This document shows positions 56,392 through 64,000 of a stretch of 64,000 nt of DNA, piece after piece. The notes below the pieces were generated by a model, which searched no databases, was not told the DNA's origin, and saw only the letters and a program-made list of their open reading frames with translations. Position 1 is the first letter of the stretch. Every line of letters begins with the position of its first letter. The DNA lies in the NCBI GenBank assembly GCA_043513815.1, contig CP121313.1, positions 4,054,783 through 4,118,782 of the forward strand, written 5' to 3'. Source of the stretch: Cellvibrionales bacterium (GTDB taxonomy: Bacteria > Pseudomonadota > Gammaproteobacteria > Pseudomonadales > Halieaceae). Both the position numbers and the translations under genes were made by a program.

Positions 56392-56684
56392 TTTCCATCA
56401 GAGTCTGTTCCGGTCGCATAGGGAACAGGTTGCCTCCGCTCAACGGCGCATGTTGCTGCGCAACATAAACGTTTGCTTCGCCCTACTGCGCCCACCGCTC
56501 CTTGCAGTCGCGCTGGACCTCAGTGGACTATCCCGGCCGGCAATCAAAGACTGCAGTCTCCGAAGAGCCGACAAAAGCTATCGCTCCGCGCGGAATCATT
56601 GCAGGGTGTTCTTGCAAATCACACTATTTTTCATGATCAGCGCCAGATTCTTCCAAGGCTTTTGCCTGCCGCACAGTTTCCTAA

Positions 56685-57017
56685 TTAGAAAGCTCTGGTG
56701 TGCTCCAGCAGGTATGCCTTCAGCATTTCTCTAAAATCTTCGTCGCTTGAGTTCTTTGCCACCAGTTGAAAGCTTTTTCTTGGGAGTTCGTCGCTATGAT
56801 TCGAGTCGTACCTGAGTATCGCTCGCTCGAGCTGCAGTCTGAGCTCTTCATCCAGCTCACCCAGCTTCCCAGGCAAAGCCGCTCCACGCAATTGGACTAC
56901 TTCAGACTGAAGGCGATCTGCCTCTGCGGCCAGAGCCGCTGTATCTTCTATGCGCACGCCTGAAGCAGCTCTGAGTCCCTGTGTCTCTCTTGTGTCTGAT
57001 TGGATACAGCTGACCAA
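56685..57017 (-). CDS. hypothetical protein (possible 3' part of a frameshifted gene)
   Basis: 110-codon ORF with a TTG start in the low-GC region after the tRNA. Coiled-coil-like Leu/Glu/Arg-rich sequence with no recognisable family. Overlaps the next ORF by 70 nt in another frame. Confidence 0.35.
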   Translation of the reverse strand: MVSCIQSDTRETQGLRAASGVRIEDTAALAAEADRLQSEVVQLRGAALPGKLGELDEELRLQLERAILRYDSNHSDELPRKSFQLVAKNSSDEDFREMLKAYLLEHTRAF

Positions 57018-57292
57018 CTTTCCTCGCAGTCATCAATCCAACGAATTAGGTCATTAGATTCATAGGCCACTATGCCATGCGTGTCGCGGAGATACTTCGC
57101 CAGGTCACCGTTCGGCATAATGCGACACGCGCGTCGCAAACCATGAAAGATGGCCCCGGCTGCGCAGTGTGTGGGTAAATATGACTCTGAACCCGATTTA
57201 TTCTTGATCCCCTGATCCCCTGATCCCCTGATCCCCTGATCCGGCCGAACTTCCAGTGACACAGTGTCTGCATCAACGTTTTTACTCGCCAC
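56948..57292 (-). CDS. hypothetical protein (possible 5' part of a frameshifted gene; contains the 8-bp repeat if the GTG start is used)
   Basis: 114-codon ORF from the GTG at 57292. An internal ATG at 57118 (MPNGDLAKYLRDTHGIVAYESNDLIRWIDDCEESW) is an alternative start that would leave the repeat upstream. No family recognised. Confidence 0.3.
   Translation of the reverse strand: MASKNVDADTVSLEVRPDQGIRGSGDQGIKNKSGSESYLPTHCAAGAIFHGLRRACRIMPNGDLAKYLRDTHGIVAYESNDLIRWIDDCEESWSAVSNQTQERHRDSELLQACA
57206..57242. repeat. 8-bp tandem repeat GATCCCCT x4.6, giving five GATC sites spaced exactly 8 bp apart
   Basis: Read directly. GATC begins at 57206, 57214, 57222, 57230 and 57238. Confidence 0.95.
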
Positions 57293-57402
57293 AGGAGGTA
57301 AGCTGGATGTGGTTTACACGGTAAAAACAGTTAGCGGGAATCTTATGTTCTCGGATTAACTGGCCAGCGGCGCTGAATGGAGTGATATCCGGAGCAGTCA
57401 AT

Positions 57403-58011
57403 ATGACCGAGCGCCACGATTGGGACACGATCATCAAAGTTGACGAGGCGCTGTGCATCTCCTGCGGAAATTGCGTCCGAACCTGCCCCGCCGGGCTGAT
57501 CACCAATAAGGATCTTCCTGTCCCGATCGAAAACTCGTGGGACCTGTGCATTGACTGCGCTCATTGCGTTTCCGTATGCCCGACCGGAGCGTTGCACCAG
57601 CGCACCATGGGGCCAGAGGATGGCACACCAATAGATATTCGCTGGGAACGGGTCAGGCAGTTTCTCGGCTCGCGGCGTTCGACGCGTGTCTACGTCAACA
57701 AACCTCTTGAGAAGGAGTGGATCCGGCAAGCCCTGGACCTCACCCACTACGCGCCAAGTGGTGAAAACCGGCAGGGTGATATCCTGCGCTGGGTCGTCAT
57801 CAGTGATCCCGCGCAGGCTTATCCTCCATTAGTCGAACTGCTCGGTCTGCCGGAGGGTACAGTGACTTACGAAACGTATCCTGCTGGGGTACAGCGCCGA
57901 AACATTCCTGCGGATTCCGCACCGGAAACACCCCCAGGTGATCTGGCAATGACTACCGAGACAATATCAGGAGCAAGGCCAGCCCCGCCTCCAGAGCTGC
58001 AGCCTTTTTAA
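57403..58011 (+). CDS. 4Fe-4S dicluster ferredoxin domain fused to an internally deleted nitroreductase domain (probable remnant)
   Basis: There are two CxxCxxCxxxCP motifs (CISCGNCVRTCP, CIDCAHCVSVCP). The nitroreductase N-terminal block follows (RRSTRVY...L..A..APSGENRQ..RWVVISD). It joins directly to the usual C-terminal LLGLPEG motif, so about 100 central residues appear to be missing. Confidence 0.6.
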   Translation: MTERHDWDTIIKVDEALCISCGNCVRTCPAGLITNKDLPVPIENSWDLCIDCAHCVSVCPTGALHQRTMGPEDGTPIDIRWERVRQFLGSRRSTRVYVNKPLEKEWIRQALDLTHYAPSGENRQGDILRWVVISDPAQAYPPLVELLGLPEGTVTYETYPAGVQRRNIPADSAPETPPGDLAMTTETISGARPAPPPELQPF

Positions 58012-58189
58012 ACGCAGTATGCGGCGCATGCAGCCTGACGGTTGCAGAAGACGAATCTCGCGGCGGGATTCGCCGGCCTGGCGAAGTGAACGGCAACGCA
58101 ATCGCCGTCATCAAATGGCAAGTGTGTCGATGGAGTCCGTGATGTAATCGGAGCCTCAGGAACTACTTATGAAAGTGCGGGCAGTGACC

Positions 58190-58978
58190 ATGAAGAAAAA
58201 CCCAGGCATCGAATCACTTGTGTTTGCAGCCTGCCTGCTGGTGCCGGCCGCCGCCGTGCACGCGGAAGAGTGGGAATGGCTGCTGACGCCCTACTTGTGG
58301 GGGATAGAACCCAGCCTGGACGTGACGGTAAACGACGAGATGGATCTCGGCGGCGATGCGGACTTTTCCGATGTGCTGGATAAGCTCGAAATGACAGCGA
58401 TGATTCACTTCCAGGGCATGCGCGGCCGTTTCGGCTTTTTTACGGATCTGGCCTATTTGGAAACCAGCGACCAGAACAGCTCGGCCCGTCGATCGGTACT
58501 TCCTGGCTCCCGGAGTTTGCTGAGAGATACCGACCTGGAGCTTACCCTGTTTGAGGCTGCCGGACTCTACCGGGCGTGGGGAGAAAAAGGCAGTCAAACG
58601 CTGGACCTGATTGTCGGCGTCAGAGGCCTTGACCTGGATTACGATCTTGACGTCGAGTCCTTGCCAAATGGAAACTTCAAGCGCAGCTACACTGTCTCGG
58701 ACACCTACTACGATGGCTTTGTCGGGGTGCATTACATGCTACCCCTGAACGAGAACTGGACAATGTCGCTGCGCGCCGATGCAGGCACCGGCGACACCGA
58801 CTACAGCTGGACTGCCAATGCGCTACTTGAATACCACTTCGGTCGAGATTCGCAGTATGGCGCGTTGGTAGGATACCGCTACCTTGACATGCAGTTTGAT
58901 AACTCCAGTGGCAGCCAGGATATCGAGAGCGATTTAACGGTACAGGGCTTTATGCTCGGCTTTGCGTTTCGATTCTAG
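58190..58978 (+). CDS. small outer-membrane beta-barrel protein
   Basis: Signal peptide (MKKNPGIESLVFAACLLVPAAAVHA). Alternating amphipathic strands with aromatic girdles. The C-terminal ...GFMLGFAFRF ends in Phe, as expected for a BAM substrate. Confidence 0.8.
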   Translation: MKKNPGIESLVFAACLLVPAAAVHAEEWEWLLTPYLWGIEPSLDVTVNDEMDLGGDADFSDVLDKLEMTAMIHFQGMRGRFGFFTDLAYLETSDQNSSARRSVLPGSRSLLRDTDLELTLFEAAGLYRAWGEKGSQTLDLIVGVRGLDLDYDLDVESLPNGNFKRSYTVSDTYYDGFVGVHYMLPLNENWTMSLRADAGTGDTDYSWTANALLEYHFGRDSQYGALVGYRYLDMQFDNSSGSQDIESDLTVQGFMLGFAFRF

Positions 58979-59056
58979 CTGCGGAGAAAATCATTCTGGA
59001 AGAGTACACATCCAAACATCCAAATAATCAAACTAGTGATAGCAGGAGTAAAGACG

Positions 59057-60223
59057 ATGAGTAATACAGAGAAGCAATCAACCACCGTGCCTTTGGACTG
59101 GAAGCAAGTGTGGTTCACGAACTGTCCGATGGTGTCCGCCAACAATGTGGACCAGGAGTTGGGGTGGTGTCGTGAGGAGTTCAAGAAGATTGGCGTCGAT
59201 TATGCCTATTTTCGCTCCGCTCCGGAGAACAACTGGTACCCACACTACATACACAATCTCGACAACCTGATTCGCTTTGGCGGCCTGAACCCGGCGATCC
59301 ACGTGCAGGCCGACATTCGTCGCACCGTGCTGCTGGGGGCGACGTGGGTCTACGAGGGCGGGGTGATGCAGGTGCGAGCCCGCGACAAGATCTTTCGCGT
59401 TACGGATTTGAAGGGCAAGAAGATCGGTATCACCAAGAGCCTCAACACCATGAAAAATGACTGGTGGCGTGTCCAGGAGCATCAGGGTATCGAGAACATG
59501 CTGATGCTGCATGACATGACCATGGATGATATTGAGCTGGTCGAGTTCCCTTACCCGGATGACTGGTACGACAAGCCCGAGATGCTGACTCCGCCGATGA
59601 ACAACCCCTCCGAGTTGTGGATGCGCCGCGACCATAAGCACGATTACGCCTTCCGACCATTGGAGAAGGCCCTGATGGATGGAACCGTTGATGCCATCTA
59701 CAACCAGATGGGACAACTTGGGCAGCTCTCGGAAGCGACTGGTGAAATCAAGTCCATCTTCGACCTGTCCAAATTGCCCGACTGGACGCTACAGGTCGCC
59801 AACACGCCCGCCGTCATCACCTGCACTGACGTGATGGCCAAGGAGCACCCTGAGCTGGTCATTGCCTACATGAAAGCCATGATCAAGGTCGGCCGCTGGG
59901 CCAATGAGCACAAGCACGCTGCAGCGGTGATTCTCAATCGGCAGACCTTCTACCTGGATGCAGAGGCCACCTACGAGGGCATCAAGCAGGTCGATATGGT
60001 GCCAAGCCTGTCGGCGCAGAACCTGGAAACCATCAGGATCGGCAAGGACTTCATGTTCAGTCACGACTACATAAAGAACGATTTTGACGTGGAAGAGTGG
60101 GCGGCTCCGGAGTTCCTGGAGCGGGCCGCTATTGAAGTACTCGAGGAGGAGTGGGAGAGAAGAAGCTGGAGCAAGCTTCCAAAGGGAGGTGGTATCGACG
60201 TGGACGGCACGCGGCTCGGCTAA
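59057..60223 (+). CDS. cytoplasmic DszB-family protein (2'-hydroxybiphenyl-2-sulfinate desulfinase homologue; NMT1/SsuA-like periplasmic-binding-protein fold)
   Basis: 388 aa from the ATG at 59057 with AGGAG 8 nt upstream, and no signal peptide. It is collinear with my recollection of Rhodococcus DszB:
- TNCP against SNCP (Cys27).
- H-x9-RFGG against H60...R70FGG73.
- DLKGKKIGIT against DLAGRRIGVS.
- MDDIELVEF against VDDVELVPI.
- GTVDAIY against GDVDALY.
- EEWAAPEFL against DQWAAPEFL. Confidence 0.8.
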   Translation: MSNTEKQSTTVPLDWKQVWFTNCPMVSANNVDQELGWCREEFKKIGVDYAYFRSAPENNWYPHYIHNLDNLIRFGGLNPAIHVQADIRRTVLLGATWVYEGGVMQVRARDKIFRVTDLKGKKIGITKSLNTMKNDWWRVQEHQGIENMLMLHDMTMDDIELVEFPYPDDWYDKPEMLTPPMNNPSELWMRRDHKHDYAFRPLEKALMDGTVDAIYNQMGQLGQLSEATGEIKSIFDLSKLPDWTLQVANTPAVITCTDVMAKEHPELVIAYMKAMIKVGRWANEHKHAAAVILNRQTFYLDAEATYEGIKQVDMVPSLSAQNLETIRIGKDFMFSHDYIKNDFDVEEWAAPEFLERAAIEVLEEEWERRSWSKLPKGGGIDVDGTRLG

Positions 60224-60326
60224 TCGCAAGTAAGCCTGTGTGGTAAAGGGTTCTCCTCCCACAGCAGGGCACGAAGGCAGGACCTGTATGAAGGAAGGAT
60301 CAGATATGACTGACTAGCACGATAGT

Positions 60327-60812
60327 TTGCCAGCCGCCAAGCAGACGCCGCTGAAGCTTTATGTCACCTCGCAAGAGGCCTACGAACGTTGGCAGGCGGA
60401 CCCGGAGGTGATGATTCTAGATGTTCGCACGCCCGAGGAGTTCCTCTTTGTGGGGCACCCGCCAATGGCCTGGAAGATTCCCATCATTGCCCAGAGCTAC
60501 GAGTGGAACGCCGATGCGGGCACATTCCCCATGCAACTCCTGGCGGATTTTGTCGAGCGGGTGAGTCAGGTGGCGACACCTGAGCGCACTATCCTGGCCA
60601 TGTGCCGCTCCGGCGGGCGCAGTGCCATGGCGGTAAACCTGCTGGCGCAGGCCGGCTTCAAAAACGTGTACAACATAGTGGACGGCATGGAAGGTGACGT
60701 AAACGGTGATTCCGAGAGTGTCGCCCAGAGCCAGCAGCCCGCCAGCGGCTGGAAGAATACAGGGTGCCCCTGGACAAAAAGCCTGACCCCGGAGCAGACG
60801 CTCCTGCCCTGA
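60327..60812 (+). CDS. single-domain rhodanese-like sulfurtransferase
   Basis: 161 aa. ILDVRTPEEF and the active-site loop CRSGGRS. The start is uncertain: a TTG at 60327 comes immediately after an in-frame TAG, and an in-frame ATG lies at 60288 upstream of that stop. Confidence 0.75.
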   Translation: MPAAKQTPLKLYVTSQEAYERWQADPEVMILDVRTPEEFLFVGHPPMAWKIPIIAQSYEWNADAGTFPMQLLADFVERVSQVATPERTILAMCRSGGRSAMAVNLLAQAGFKNVYNIVDGMEGDVNGDSESVAQSQQPASGWKNTGCPWTKSLTPEQTLLP

Positions 60813-60877
60813 ATACACTTGCGTTATGGGGCGCTGCTTGACCGTGCATTTAAAGCCGAAGAATTAGAGGAACTGAC

Positions 60878-62581
60878 ATGAAAGTGGTTATCGTTGGTGG
60901 TGTGGCTGGTGGTGCGTCCTGTGCGGCGCGCCTGAGAAGGCTGGATGAGAACGCCGAAATCATCATGGTGGAAAAAGGGCCCTATGTGTCCTACGCCAAC
61001 TGCGGCTTGCCTTACTATGTCGGCGGCGTGATTGAAAAGGAATCCAGCCTGCTGGTCGCATCGGAGCAGATGTTCAAGAGTGTGTTCGGCATCGATGTGC
61101 GCACCAACTGCGAGGCGATATCCATTTCGGCAGATGCCAAGACTATTGATCTGCGCAATGTCGAAACCGGCGAGACCGCAACGGAATCCTACGACAAGTT
61201 GGTGCTCTCCCCCGGGGCTGCGTCTATTCATCCCCCACTGCCGGGCATCGACCTGCCCGGGATTTTCCAGGTACGCACCGTGCCTGACGTAAGGGCGATA
61301 AAGGAATGGATAGAGGGCGGCACCACCTTCCTCGCCGGCATGTCCAATTACTCAGGTATACAGATGAAGAAGCCTGCCCGGCGAGCCGTGGTGGTGGGCG
61401 GCGGGTTTATCGGCCTGGAAATGGCGGAGAATCTTGTGCACCTGGGGTTTGAGGTCACGGTGCTGCAGCTGCTGCCACAAATCCTGGGCCCCCTGGATCC
61501 GGAAATCGCAGTCATGGTTGAGGAGTACATCAGCGGTAATGGCGTGCAGCTGGAGCTTGGTGACGGCGCTGCTGAATTTGAGCAACTGGAAAACGGCTCG
61601 ATCAACGTCAAGACCAGTTCCGGCAAGACCCACGCCGCGGACGTGGTGATTCTCGCAATCGGGGTGCGTCCGGAAACCGCGCTGGCGAAAACTGCGGGCC
61701 TGGAGATCGGCGAGCGCGGCGGTATCCGGGTGGACGACCAGATGCACACCAGCAATCCGGACATTTTTGCCGTGGGTGATGCCGTCGAGGTGAAGGATTT
61801 CGTGACCGGTGAGTGGAGCCTGGTGGCGCTGGCAGGTCCGGCGAACCGCCAGGGCCGAAGTGCGGCAGATGTGATTGCCGGTCGTGACTCCAGCTTCCGC
61901 GGGAGCCAGGGCACGGCGATTATCGGCCTTTTCGGCGGTGCAGTTGCCTGGACAGGTGTGAGTGAAACGACCCTGGAAAGGCTGGGTGATACCGACTACG
62001 AAAGAGTGTATCTCTACCCCAACTCCCACGCCGGCTACTACCCCGGGGCGAAGATGATCGGCCTGAAAGTCCTGTTCCGCAAGTCAGATGGCAAGGTGCT
62101 GGGTGCCCAGGCACTGGGCGAGGATGGCCCTGCGGTGGACAAGCGCATCAGTGCCCTGGCCATGGCAATCCAGATGGGTGCGACAATCTACGACCTGGAG
62201 GAAGCGGAGCTGTGCTATGCGCCGCAATTCGGCAGCGCCAAGGACCCCGTGAACTTCGCGGGCATGGTCGCGGCGAATATCATGGAAGACGGGATGGCGG
62301 TCAGCCACTGGGACGAATTGGAAGGCGCCTTCCTGCTGGATGTGCGCCAGCCGGTGGAACTTGTGATAGAGAGCGTACCCGGCGCAGTCAATATACCGAT
62401 CGGTCAACTGCGCTCGCGTATGGAGGAACTGCCAAAGGATAAGGAGATTCACCTTATCTGCCGCTCCGCCCAGCGCGCCTATTACGCTCAGCGGATGCTC
62501 GCGCAACATGGCTTCAAGGTGCGCACCCTCTCTGGAGGCATCCTCTCCAGGGCCATGCATGTTTCGGAACAGATGAAATGA
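60878..62581 (+). CDS. CoA-disulfide reductase-family flavoprotein with a C-terminal rhodanese domain (CoADR-RHD / persulfide-reductase type)
   Basis: 567 aa. FAD motif VVIVGGVAGGAS, the single redox Cys in SYANCGLPYY, the NAD(P)H motif VVVGGGFIGLE, and a C-terminal rhodanese with CRSAQRA. Confidence 0.9.
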   Translation: MKVVIVGGVAGGASCAARLRRLDENAEIIMVEKGPYVSYANCGLPYYVGGVIEKESSLLVASEQMFKSVFGIDVRTNCEAISISADAKTIDLRNVETGETATESYDKLVLSPGAASIHPPLPGIDLPGIFQVRTVPDVRAIKEWIEGGTTFLAGMSNYSGIQMKKPARRAVVVGGGFIGLEMAENLVHLGFEVTVLQLLPQILGPLDPEIAVMVEEYISGNGVQLELGDGAAEFEQLENGSINVKTSSGKTHAADVVILAIGVRPETALAKTAGLEIGERGGIRVDDQMHTSNPDIFAVGDAVEVKDFVTGEWSLVALAGPANRQGRSAADVIAGRDSSFRGSQGTAIIGLFGGAVAWTGVSETTLERLGDTDYERVYLYPNSHAGYYPGAKMIGLKVLFRKSDGKVLGAQALGEDGPAVDKRISALAMAIQMGATIYDLEEAELCYAPQFGSAKDPVNFAGMVAANIMEDGMAVSHWDELEGAFLLDVRQPVELVIESVPGAVNIPIGQLRSRMEELPKDKEIHLICRSAQRAYYAQRMLAQHGFKVRTLSGGILSRAMHVSEQMK

Positions 62582-62633
62582 ACAAGTCTCTGCAAATCGT
62601 GACCTTGTTGTTCAAGGTATGTCGGTCTAGTCC

Positions 62634-63512
62634 GTGAGTGCTGTAATGGAGTTTCTTCAGAGCACGTTTTCGCCCCTGGTGTTGGTTTTTACCGTATCCA
62701 ACCTCGCCGCCATGGGACTGCAGGTAAGCCTGCCCGAAGTCATGGAGGCGATGAAAAACAGGGTCGCCATTGTGCTTATCTTTGTTTGGGGCTGGATCCT
62801 TGGGCCGGCCATCGGGTACCTGATAACCCTGCTGCTTCCACTCGAGGAGCCCTATAAGATTGTGATCCTGCTCGCCAGTCTTGCACCCTGTGCTCCGTTC
62901 CTTCAGCAGATGGTAGGAAAAGCCAGTGGGGATATCAGTTTTGCCGGGGCTCTCATACCACTGGTTGCCGTCGGTACGGTGATCCTGATGCCGGTAATGG
63001 CTCCCTTTTTGATCAAGGGGCTGACTATCAATGCCGTGGCGCTGGCAAAACCGCTGCTTTTGACCATACTCCTGCCCCTGCTGATTGGCGCGGCGATACG
63101 GCACTACTATGGGAACACGGCGACTCGTGTTTACCCTGCTGTGAAAGTCCTGGCAAAACTCTCGACCTTACTCACGGTCCTGTGGTGCCTGATTCTATTC
63201 GGCAAGGGCATGCTCAATACGGCTGGAGAGCTCGCTCTCATGGCCATGACCGTATTCATGGTCGGCATGGCTCTGTTTACCTACCTGATAGGCTTTGGGA
63301 TTCGCCAGAACCAGCGCAGTGTCATGGCGCTGGGTATGGGTACGCGCAATGTCGCCGCCGTGTTGGCGGCGGCTCTCGCCATTCCAAACGCGGACCCGCG
63401 CATATTGGTGATGACCGTCATGTGGACTTTGTGGTCCGTCGTTCTCGCCGCCATAGGGGCCTGGGTCTTTGCACGGCAAGCCGGAAAATCGACTGCAACT
63501 ACCACCTCATAA
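62634..63512 (+). CDS. bile acid:sodium symporter (BASS/SBF-like) family permease
   Basis: About 290 aa with 9-10 predicted TM segments and an internal two-fold pattern typical of BASS proteins. Start is the GTG at 62634 or the ATG at 62646. Confidence 0.82.
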   Translation: MSAVMEFLQSTFSPLVLVFTVSNLAAMGLQVSLPEVMEAMKNRVAIVLIFVWGWILGPAIGYLITLLLPLEEPYKIVILLASLAPCAPFLQQMVGKASGDISFAGALIPLVAVGTVILMPVMAPFLIKGLTINAVALAKPLLLTILLPLLIGAAIRHYYGNTATRVYPAVKVLAKLSTLLTVLWCLILFGKGMLNTAGELALMAMTVFMVGMALFTYLIGFGIRQNQRSVMALGMGTRNVAAVLAAALAIPNADPRILVMTVMWTLWSVVLAAIGAWVFARQAGKSTATTTS

Positions 63513-63567
63513 GCACCGGGCCGTTCGCGACCAGGCCTGACCTTAGGATTGCTTGCCGGAGCCACCT

Positions 63568-64000
63568 ATGAATGTCTTGTTAAAGGAATTGCGAAGCAAT
63601 CCAGTGCTGTGGCTGCTGGTGTTGGTGCCGGTGGTGCTCGTGGCTCATAAACTCAAGCCCGACGCGCACACTATGCTGTTTGTCTTGTCGGTGCTGGCCA
63701 TCATTCCCCTGGCGGCCTTCATGAGTCACGCCACGGAATCGGTGGCGTCCAAAACCGGGGATGGTGTCGGCGGTCTGCTCAATGCCACCTTTGGCAATAT
63801 GACCGAGTTGATTATCGCGCTGACCGCTCTGAAGGCGGGGGAATATATGCTGGTAAAGGCCAGTATCGCGGGCGCGATCGTCACCAATACCCTGTTTATG
63901 CTCGGCATGGCCTTTGTCCTTGGCGGACTCAAGTTTCATGTGCAGGAATACAATAAGCTCAATGCCCGCGTCTTGTCGAGTATGCTGTTTATAGCCACGG
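63568..64000 (+). CDS. calcium/proton exchanger (CaCA/CAX family), 3' end outside the window
   Basis: Not in the ORF track because it runs off the window end. My own translation from the ATG at 63568 reads MNVLLKELRSNPVLWLLVLVPVVLVAHKL...ESVASKTGDGVGGLLNATFGNMTELIIALTALKAG...IAGAIVTNTLFMLG. This contains the alpha-1 repeat (GN..EL) of CaCA exchangers. Confidence 0.85.
   Translation, partial: MNVLLKELRSNPVLWLLVLVPVVLVAHKLKPDAHTMLFVLSVLAIIPLAAFMSHATESVASKTGDGVGGLLNATFGNMTELIIALTALKAGEYMLVKASIAGAIVTNTLFMLGMAFVLGGLKFHVQEYNKLNARVLSSMLFIAT

Follow-up and report, generated by a model that had tools for sequence, protein, structure and literature searches.

Gene organization of the locus

A 64-kb stretch of Cellvibrionales contig CP121313.1 (hereafter the window) carries on its plus strand a compact set of five genes, one of which encodes a homologue of DszB, the 2′-hydroxybiphenyl-2-sulfinate desulfinase of the Rhodococcus 4S dibenzothiophene pathway. 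Open reading frames (ORFs) of the window were called and subjected to profile searches and PDB sequence searches, and all five ORFs and gene types given in a preliminary description of this DNA were recovered at the same coordinates (Table 1). The products are, in order, a small outer-membrane protein (OMP), the DszB-like enzyme, a single-domain rhodanese, a CoA-disulfide/persulfide reductase fused to a rhodanese domain (CoADR-RHD) and a BASS-family transporter, and the gaps between their genes are 78, 103, 65 and 52 bp. An AGGAG sequence lies 8 nt 5′ of the listed ATG of the DszB-like gene, and the N-terminus obtained from this start agrees with those of the homologues. Because a promoter and terminator scan of 56200-64000 returned sites at chance level only, co-transcription of the set is argued from the short gaps, the shared strand and the synteny. 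An Rfam search upstream of the cluster gave no riboswitch or other element.

Table 1. Features of the gene set and of its flanks in the window.
Feature	Position	Strand	Basis or remark
Small outer-membrane beta-barrel protein (OMP)	58190-58978 (alternative start 58169)	+	Signal peptide; C-terminal ...FAFRF; partial TIGR04219 match
DszB-like enzyme, 388 aa	59057-60223 (ATG 59057; alternative GTG 59036)	+	PDB sequence and fold match to DszB
Single-domain rhodanese, 161 aa	60327-60812, TTG start	+	PF00581, E = 6e-14; loop C93-R-S-G-G-R-S
CoA-disulfide/persulfide reductase fused to C-terminal rhodanese domain (CoADR-RHD), 567 aa	60878-62581	+	Pyr_redox_2, Pyr_redox_dim and Rhodanese
BASS/SBF-family secondary transporter, 292 aa	62634-63512	+	SBF PF01758, E = 4e-14
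Decayed 2x[4Fe-4S]-ferredoxin/nitroreductase remnant	57382-58011	+	Family residues 143-228 missing; 3′ part frameshifted
Old-yellow-enzyme (OYE) flavoprotein gene	55089-56237	+	
In-frame 24-bp tandem repeat in the OYE gene	55830-55932		4.2 copies, 93% matches
tRNA-Met (CAT)	56315-56391	+	
Lower-GC, poorly coding DNA, ~1 kb	56392-57380		Small ORFs without family or plasmid matches
Perfect 8-bp tandem repeat in the low-GC stretch	57205-57242		TGATCCCC x4.8
CaCA-family antiporter gene (Na+/Ca2+ exchanger)	63571-64000	+	PF01699; runs off the window end

Both sulfur-handling enzymes encoded downstream of the DszB-like gene have relatives of solved structure. CoADR-RHD keeps its redox Cys42 (SYANCG) and its rhodanese Cys528 (ICRSAQR), and its PDB sequence matches, which are closely related and biochemically characterized persulfide reductases, were led by B. 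anthracis CoADR-RHD (3ICR, E = 5e-154) and included S. loihica Npsr (3NTA) and E. faecalis CoA-persulfide reductase (8A56); all three matched over the full length at E = 1e-137 to 1e-154. The score of 419 bits against the CoA-disulfide reductase model TIGR03385 is below the 578.8-bit equivalog cutoff, as expected for the fusion subtype. The best PDB matches of the window rhodanese were M. tuberculosis Rv0390 (2FSX) and the Acinetobacter encapsulin-associated rhodanese (8W14), and relatives of this type, the Acinetobacter protein included, show thiosulfate sulfurtransferase activity (PMC10925157).

Fold and active site of the DszB-like protein

When the PDB was searched with the 388-aa sequence, DszB (2DE2/2DE3) was the only match (E = 2e-10), and it extended from end to end. 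In the alignment, T-N-C23-P corresponds to S-N-C27-P, H63 to His60, R73-F-G-G76 to Arg70-F-G-Gly73, and WAAPEFL to WAAPEFL, with a His-to-Arg spacing of exactly 10 residues in both proteins. The active site of DszB consists of Cys27, His60, Arg70 and Gly73 (PMC12168087). These Cys/His/Arg/Gly columns did not vary in a family alignment of 109 sequences, which are 23-88% identical to the window protein, or in 25 distant relatives, and the invariant columns of the 109-sequence alignment were C23, H63, R73, G75, G76, D135, L149, L206 and P251. The preliminary description had assigned the Cys, His and Arg to the catalytic columns of DszB; as judged from these alignments, the constellation is real and is the most conserved feature of the family.

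An AF2 model built from the 109-sequence alignment had a pLDDT of 91.6 and a pTM of 0.89, and it superseded an earlier poor model from 18 close homologues (pLDDT 66.9). Its fold is that of the type II periplasmic binding proteins (NMT1/SsuA-like), and Foldseek against the PDB placed DszB 2DE3/2DE2 first (E = 1.8e-19, TM 0.69/0.77), with SsuA, Thi5 and TauA ranking behind. The SsuA_fam profile TIGR01728 gave 58.3 bits against a cutoff of 163.5, with residues 204-354 alone matching, and the NMT1 profile gave 25 bits. The in silico checks listed in the preliminary description, structure prediction and profile searches among them, all agreed with it.

The N-terminus of the window protein begins 12 residues ahead of the conserved core and has no signal peptide, as described previously, and about 119 of its 120 nearest homologues likewise lack one. 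The remaining one, P0116 (74% identity), has a Tat-like (twin-arginine) signal, SRRTFIQ followed by a hydrophobic stretch, and by this sequence at least one lineage may export the folded protein.

Anywhere in the 64-kb window, we found no LLM monooxygenase, no acyl-CoA-dehydrogenase-type (DszC-like) gene and no SsuC-type permease; the sole SsuB-like match was a 35-residue Walker-type fragment at 12.6 kb, approximately 46 kb from the cluster. Apart from this fragment, the scan agrees with the initial statement that neither a flavin monooxygenase nor an ABC permease or ATPase lies near the gene. Public annotation of the homologues is throughout "ABC transporter substrate-binding protein", and DszB homologues are routinely mis-annotated in this way. 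On the evidence of its sequence, fold and gene neighborhood, the product of 59057-60223 is a cytoplasmic DszB-family enzyme and not a transport binding protein. It is from the conserved active-site residues that a sulfinate substrate and a sulfite product are suggested.

Neighborhood of the gene across genomes

The subfamily was detected in at least 273 of the representative genomes scanned, with one genome per species. Eighty loci were fetched, and a tblastn census was carried out over 81 loci with 10 kb on either side. These loci span more than 10 phyla, and the hosts, as named in their records, include Gamma-, Alpha-, Beta- and "Delta"-proteobacteria, Chloroflexia/Anaerolineae, Actinomycetota, Acidobacteriota, Nitrospira, Planctomycetes, Calditrichia, Ignavibacteria and Synechococcus, with one Methanosarcinales bin that is possibly a binning error. 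Carriers include both anaerobes and aerobes; Chelatococcus asaccharovorans DSM 6462, Kaistia dalseonensis, Rhizobium leguminosarum ATCC 14479 and Synechococcus sp. RedBA-s are cultured.

A rhodanese or a CoADR-RHD was present in 70 of the 81 loci: the rhodanese in 58, within 450 bp of the DszB-like gene in 40, and CoADR-RHD in 31. Every one of the 61 rhodanese copies shares its strand with the DszB-like gene. Of the permeases, a SulP sulfate-type permease was present in 32 loci and BASS in 29; the SulP neighbor scored above the sulfate-permease cutoff (TIGR00815, 432 bits vs 380). The regulators near the gene are of MalT (31 loci), AraC (QhpR-like; 9 loci), TetR and histidine-kinase types. Further neighbors were a 2x[4Fe-4S]-nitroreductase (22 loci), a crotonase in which both catalytic Glu residues are present as read from the sequence (21 loci), and a block of genes for a glycyl-radical enzyme, a PFK-like protein, an activase and a ferredoxin (9 loci). 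OMP was found in only 6 of the 81 loci from genomes and in 4 of 80 from metagenomes. The same partners were seen on independent metagenome contigs. The smallest version of the unit, the DszB-like gene with the rhodanese, was seen in Synechococcus sp. RedBA-s and in Aliisedimentitalea, and in the latter an AraC-type regulator precedes it.

The recurrence of rhodanese, CoADR-RHD and BASS-type neighbors in many phyla bears out the sulfur-handling context proposed initially, although the five genes are not equal members of one set, as had been supposed. The real core is the DszB-like gene with the rhodanese, to which CoADR-RHD is often added, and OMP is peripheral.

Neither LLM monooxygenase nor acyl-CoA dehydrogenase (ACAD) genes occurred within 10 kb of the gene in any of the 81 loci. 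ABC ATPase-like ORFs were present in only 4-5 loci and adjacent to the gene in none, so the association with ABC transporter operons that had been named as a possible refutation was rejected. No sulfide:quinone oxidoreductase (SQR), persulfide dioxygenase or CstR/BigR/SqrR-type repressor was found among the recurrent neighbor clusters, in a census that included no profile search aimed at CstR.

The closest relatives of the window locus come from two bins, one of an uncultured gammaproteobacterium and the other of a member of the Halieaceae; the DszB-like proteins are 93-94% identical and the partners 93-96%. Both bins hold MalT, crotonase, nitroreductase, AraC, DszB-like, rhodanese, CoADR-RHD and BASS genes, and SulP was confirmed in the gammaproteobacterial bin, whose locus reaches that far. 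At the window cluster, crotonase, SulP, MalT and AraC genes are absent. The nitroreductase, which is intact and downstream in 22 other loci, is here an upstream remnant with an internal deletion of approximately 86 codons and a 3′ frameshift. The window therefore holds a trimmed yet intact core of DszB-like, rhodanese, CoADR-RHD and BASS genes.

Loci with reductases or a glycyl-radical enzyme

In the 22 loci with the ferredoxin-nitroreductase, its gene is directly 3′ of the DszB-like gene. A different reductase is found on a plasmid of R. leguminosarum ATCC 14479 (L081), where the DszB-like gene is located between two subunits of a benzoyl-CoA-reductase (BCR)/double-cubane-like enzyme and two ATPase activators, and BASS, two rhodaneses and SulP come next. 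A metagenome scan gave this association in at least 7 further contigs, two of which (L094 and L095) carry duplicated reductase pairs. The two activase ATPases of L081, L094 and L095 are distinct from each other. The DszB-like gene is nested among reductase subunits and activases in L081, L094, L095, L099, L102, L103 and L108. When BCR-like genes were sought in the 80 closest genome loci, essentially none were found; the BCR-linked loci belong to a branch of 65-90% identity.

The glycyl-radical enzyme block is near the DszB-like gene in L009, L017, L022, L028, L030, L032, L036, L045 and L063, and also in L158 and L161. This fixed block encodes an unclassified glycyl-radical enzyme together with a PFK-family kinase and a radical-SAM activase, in many cases joined by a ferredoxin-domain protein. 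The best matches of the glycyl-radical enzyme were HypD and HpsG, all far under the cutoffs, and a PFK-type kinase next to a glycyl-radical enzyme is an unusual pairing.

Subfamily traits and slow evolution of the DszB-like protein

When 1.84 billion cluster representatives were searched exhaustively, only 929 related clusters emerged. The window protein falls within one tight clade, and the next relatives are 26-45% identical, 345-365 aa long and without the last 30 residues. The clade has T-N-C-P where the distant group has T-R-C-P, and a second invariant cysteine, C256, where both DszB and the distant group have Val. Its further specific invariant residues are K127-S128, D135-W-W-R138, R191/H193/K194/D196 and F199-R200-P201. 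A C-terminal helix at 351-373 is followed by a flexible tail (pLDDT < 60), which ends T-R-L-G in the window protein, and more than 105 of 120 homologues close with x-R-[L/I]-G.

Across the 80 loci, identity of the DszB-like protein to the window copy was 81-94% (median 85.7%), a range somewhat inflated since the loci were picked as best matches. The contrast with the co-located partners is internal to the same loci, and their median identities were 51% for the rhodanese, 70% for CoADR-RHD and 30% for BASS. Fourfold-degenerate sites differed by approximately 0.5, which is saturation, and GC content at third codon positions (GC3) of the DszB-like gene followed host GC (r = 0.76). Saturated synonymous sites together with divergent partners rule out recent horizontal transfer as the cause of the ~86% identity, and the synonymous divergence and the tracking of host GC by GC3 indicate that the arrangement is old and that its linkage has been kept by selection. 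Simple catabolic hydrolases rarely evolve this slowly. The extreme conservation is suggestive of contacts with several proteins or of a mechanism with unusual demands, and it is left unexplained by every model offered below.

GC3 of the DszB-like genes was 0.69-0.97 even where host GC is 44-55%, a sequence feature that suggests strong codon bias or high expression. Homologues of 461-493 aa were considered as rhodanese fusions, as which P0102 is annotated by JGI. This was rejected, for most of them have an N-terminal extension rich in Lys, Ala and Pro, and P0102 and P0093 appear to be products of frameshifted read-through. The extension, of 85-110 residues, is present in approximately 10% of the close homologues (P0058, P0064, P0088, P0094-P0097, P0101, P0105, P0112, P0113 and P0118). 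It is composed of low-complexity Lys/Ala/Pro-rich segments on either side of a conserved amphipathic helix, and resembles encapsulation or scaffold-targeting peptides.

Comparison with known systems

The window protein shares with DszB (2DE2/2DE3) the fold, the cytoplasmic location, the Cys/His/Arg/Gly set and the (S/T)NCP, RFGG and WAAPEFL motifs. Nevertheless, the two are only ~21% identical, and the window protein has the extra Cys256 and a 30-residue C-terminal extension ending R-L-G. Invariant polar residues of its clade (K127-S128, D135-W-W-R138 and R191/H193/K194/D196) are positioned where DszB binds the hydrophobic biphenyl. To our knowledge, the sole role described for DszB is in the final, rate-limiting step of aerobic fuel desulfurization by the 4S pathway. 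In place of the dszA and dszC monooxygenase genes of that pathway, the partners here are the rhodanese, the CoA-persulfide reductase, anion permeases and, in some loci, anaerobic-type reductases.

Distant members of the family, 23-28% identical, occur on replicons of rhizobia and Sphingobium, where the gene either follows an LLM-monooxygenase gene and precedes an acyl-CoA-dehydrogenase-like one or lies amid ssu genes, and by gene content this setting is classical oxygen-dependent sulfur scavenging. They share the superfamily, the invariant Cys/His/Arg/Gly-Gly and the annotation as ABC binding proteins with the window protein, but have T-R-C-P, Val at the C256 site and no C-terminal tail, and are linked to flavin monooxygenases instead of rhodanese and CoADR-RHD. 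Another distant relative adjoins MttB/corrinoid and molybdopterin oxidoreductase genes. On L093 (8001-14672), six tandem distant paralogues of 356-362 aa each are located between ABC permease and ABC ATPase genes, and genes for a porin and a conventional NMT1 binding protein lie 5′ of them.

The partner genes resemble cst-like sulfide/persulfide-stress operons, represented by E. faecalis CoA-persulfide reductase with RhdA/RhdB, S. loihica Npsr and B. anthracis CoADR-RHD, in combining a homologous CoADR-RHD with a single-domain rhodanese and a membrane transporter. Those operons are under persulfide-sensing repressors of the CstR type, whereas the regulators here are MalT-, AraC/QhpR- or TetR-like, and neither a sulfide:quinone oxidoreductase nor a persulfide dioxygenase is recurrent. 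We know of no DszB-like gene in a cst-like operon.

With the periplasmic sulfonate-binding proteins SsuA and TauA, the DszB-like protein shares the fold class and a weak profile similarity in the C-terminal lobe; it differs in having neither signal peptide nor ABC partners, in its score under the family cutoff, and in bearing catalytic residues that SsuA lacks. THI5/NMT1 HMP-P synthase, a second-tier structural match with ~12% identity, is likewise a cytoplasmic enzyme on this fold and likewise unusually conserved, but it relies on an unrelated PLP/His chemistry and has none of its active-site residues in common with the DszB-like protein. A literature search found no paper describing the subfamily or the gene cluster. 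Fold and active site make the protein a member of the DszB family, but its gene context is unlike those of 4S-pathway desulfinases and of SsuA-type binding proteins.

A possible oxygen-independent desulfination module

The active site, the fold, the recurring neighbors and the lack of ABC operons support the initial proposal that a DszB-family enzyme was recruited into a different, uncharacterized sulfur pathway. The recurrence of the set in many phyla, with no oxygen-dependent enzymes as partners, makes it probable that it marks a route, so far undescribed, by which an organosulfur compound is processed independently of oxygen. We consider that there is about an even chance that the DszB-like enzyme, the rhodanese, CoADR-RHD and the anion permeases form an oxygen-independent desulfination module, possibly acting on a thiosulfonate, that releases sulfite. 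The substrate class, sulfite release, transport direction and the share of each enzyme in the work are proposed in the following scheme. An anionic organosulfur compound with an S-oxyanion group would enter the cell, most likely a sulfinate (R-SO2-) and possibly in the form of a thiosulfonate (R-SO2-S-). Organic thiosulfonates are good sulfur donors for rhodaneses and leave the sulfinate. If a thiosulfonate is imported, Cys93 of the rhodanese would take its sulfane sulfur as a persulfide, from which the sulfur would pass to CoA and be reduced by CoADR-RHD to H2S with NAD(P)H. In the DszB-like enzyme, H63, R73 and the G75-G76 backbone would grip the -SO2- group and C23 would cleave the C-S bond to give R-H and (bi)sulfite. 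The sulfite would then leave through SulP or BASS, or be captured by the rhodanese persulfide as thiosulfate. Among the readings considered, a thiosulfonate/sulfinate route is the one that would employ all three conserved enzymes.

Several observations weigh against this scheme. The sulfite-handling genes TauE/SafE, SorA and SoeABC were absent from the recurrent neighbors, and gene content is the sole source of the thiosulfonate idea. Protonolysis of the DszB type is chemically easy only for aryl and heteroaryl sulfinates. A simple hydrolase does not account for 81-94% identity across phyla, for the invariant C256 or for the conserved R-L-G tail, nor would hydrolytic desulfination need the ferredoxin-nitroreductase (22/81 loci) with crotonase, or the BCR-like reductase with two activases (at least 8 contigs). 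In addition, the DszB-like protein is Met-rich (4.6% Met) rather than sulfur-depleted, unlike typical sulfate-starvation proteins. This makes a plain sulfur-scavenging role doubtful and a classic sulfate-starvation protein unlikely, although the indication is a weak one.

Four features that the desulfination module leaves unexplained, namely the reductase partners, C256, the C-terminal tail and the extreme conservation, motivate two other explanations. The enzyme may instead serve a reductive sulfur relay, in which C23 would form a Cys-S-SO2- adduct from a sulfinate, a sulfonate or sulfite, low-potential partners would reduce it to a persulfide or a C23-S-C256 trisulfide, and the rhodanese and CoADR-RHD would unload H2S and not sulfite. 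C256, invariant in the subfamily and missing from DszB and the monooxygenase-linked relatives, fits such a role, and the strand topology of the model would put it on the same N-lobe sheet edge as C23 and G76. The seven loci with the gene nested among reductase subunits and activases, the nitroreductase directly 3′ of it in 22 loci, and the persulfide-handling enzymes as its most conserved neighbors are consistent with the relay, and extreme conservation with a flexible conserved tail would suit docking with several partners. Approximately 55 of the 81 loci, however, including the window and the minimal two-gene units, are without an intact reductase partner, and such chemistry is not known for this fold; we regard the relay as rather unlikely. 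A related and quite improbable proposal is a so far unknown oxygen-independent path from sulfonate or sulfinate to sulfide. Here the ATP-driven BCR/double-cubane-like reductase or the ferredoxin-nitroreductase would provide electrons of very low potential for the reduction of a sulfonate to sulfinate or of an enzyme-bound Cys-S-SO2- adduct, the sulfur would be carried on C23/C256, and H2S would be formed via the rhodanese and the CoA-persulfide reductase. If the reductase link does reflect reductive desulfonation, the pathway would be of a new kind, with non-siroheme S(IV) reduction and a mechanism for anaerobic desulfonation.

The other explanation replaces the organic substrate with an inorganic S-oxyanion (thiosulfate, polythionates, sulfite or a thiosulfate-loaded rhodanese), on which the enzyme would act in thiosulfate/sulfane-sulfur assimilation or detoxification with the rhodanese, CoADR-RHD and the sulfate-type permease. 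It accords with the SulP neighbor above the TIGR00815 cutoff and with conserved active-site residues that contact the S-oxyanion group and not the organic moiety, and by established biochemistry a rhodanese and a CoA-persulfide reductase suffice to convert thiosulfate to sulfite and sulfide. A stable Cys-S-S-SO3- adduct is formed on related rhodaneses (PMC10925157). We nevertheless hold an inorganic substrate to be unlikely: the wider family as a whole, from DszB itself to the relatives encoded in LLM-monooxygenase/ACAD clusters, is associated with the C-S chemistry of organosulfur compounds, the crotonase, glycyl-radical-enzyme and BCR-like neighbors indicate organic and probably CoA-linked intermediates, and a BASS-type organic-anion carrier is frequent. 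A ligand binder without catalytic activity, whether a cytoplasmic orphan acting in solute binding or as a sensor or a mis-called ABC substrate-binding protein, would agree with the public names of all homologues, the weak NMT1 and SsuA_fam matches, the Tat-like signal of P0116 and the distant relative in the ABC operon of L093. It is very improbable in view of the SsuA_fam score (58 vs 163.5), the about 119 of 120 homologues without a signal peptide, the lack of adjacent ABC genes in 81 loci, the invariant DszB catalytic Cys, His, Arg and Gly pair, and DszB as the best structural match.

The wide occurrence of the subfamily, its near constancy and its linkage to persulfide-handling enzymes, and in some lineages to ATP-dependent low-potential reductases, point to an unrecognized, probably widespread organosulfur transformation in soils and sediments for which oxygen is not required. 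Knowledge of the substrate would extend the sulfur cycle by one step, could bear on anaerobic sulfonate/sulfinate desulfurization and would offer new desulfinase scaffolds, and the cultured carriers make the module directly testable.

Flanking regions of the window cluster

Upstream of the cluster are dnaG, rpoD, a response regulator, the OYE flavoprotein gene and tRNA-Met, followed by the low-GC stretch. The tRNA-Met and this stretch could be a genomic-island junction; neither an att-like direct repeat of the tRNA 3′ end nor an integrase was found inside the window. The tandem repeat in the OYE gene encodes FKQPAEGS units inserted in this old-yellow-enzyme-family protein. Downstream, the CaCA-family antiporter gene begins 59 bp past BASS, and genes for a Na+/H+ exchanger and a TMEM175-type channel are also recurrent near the cluster in other loci.

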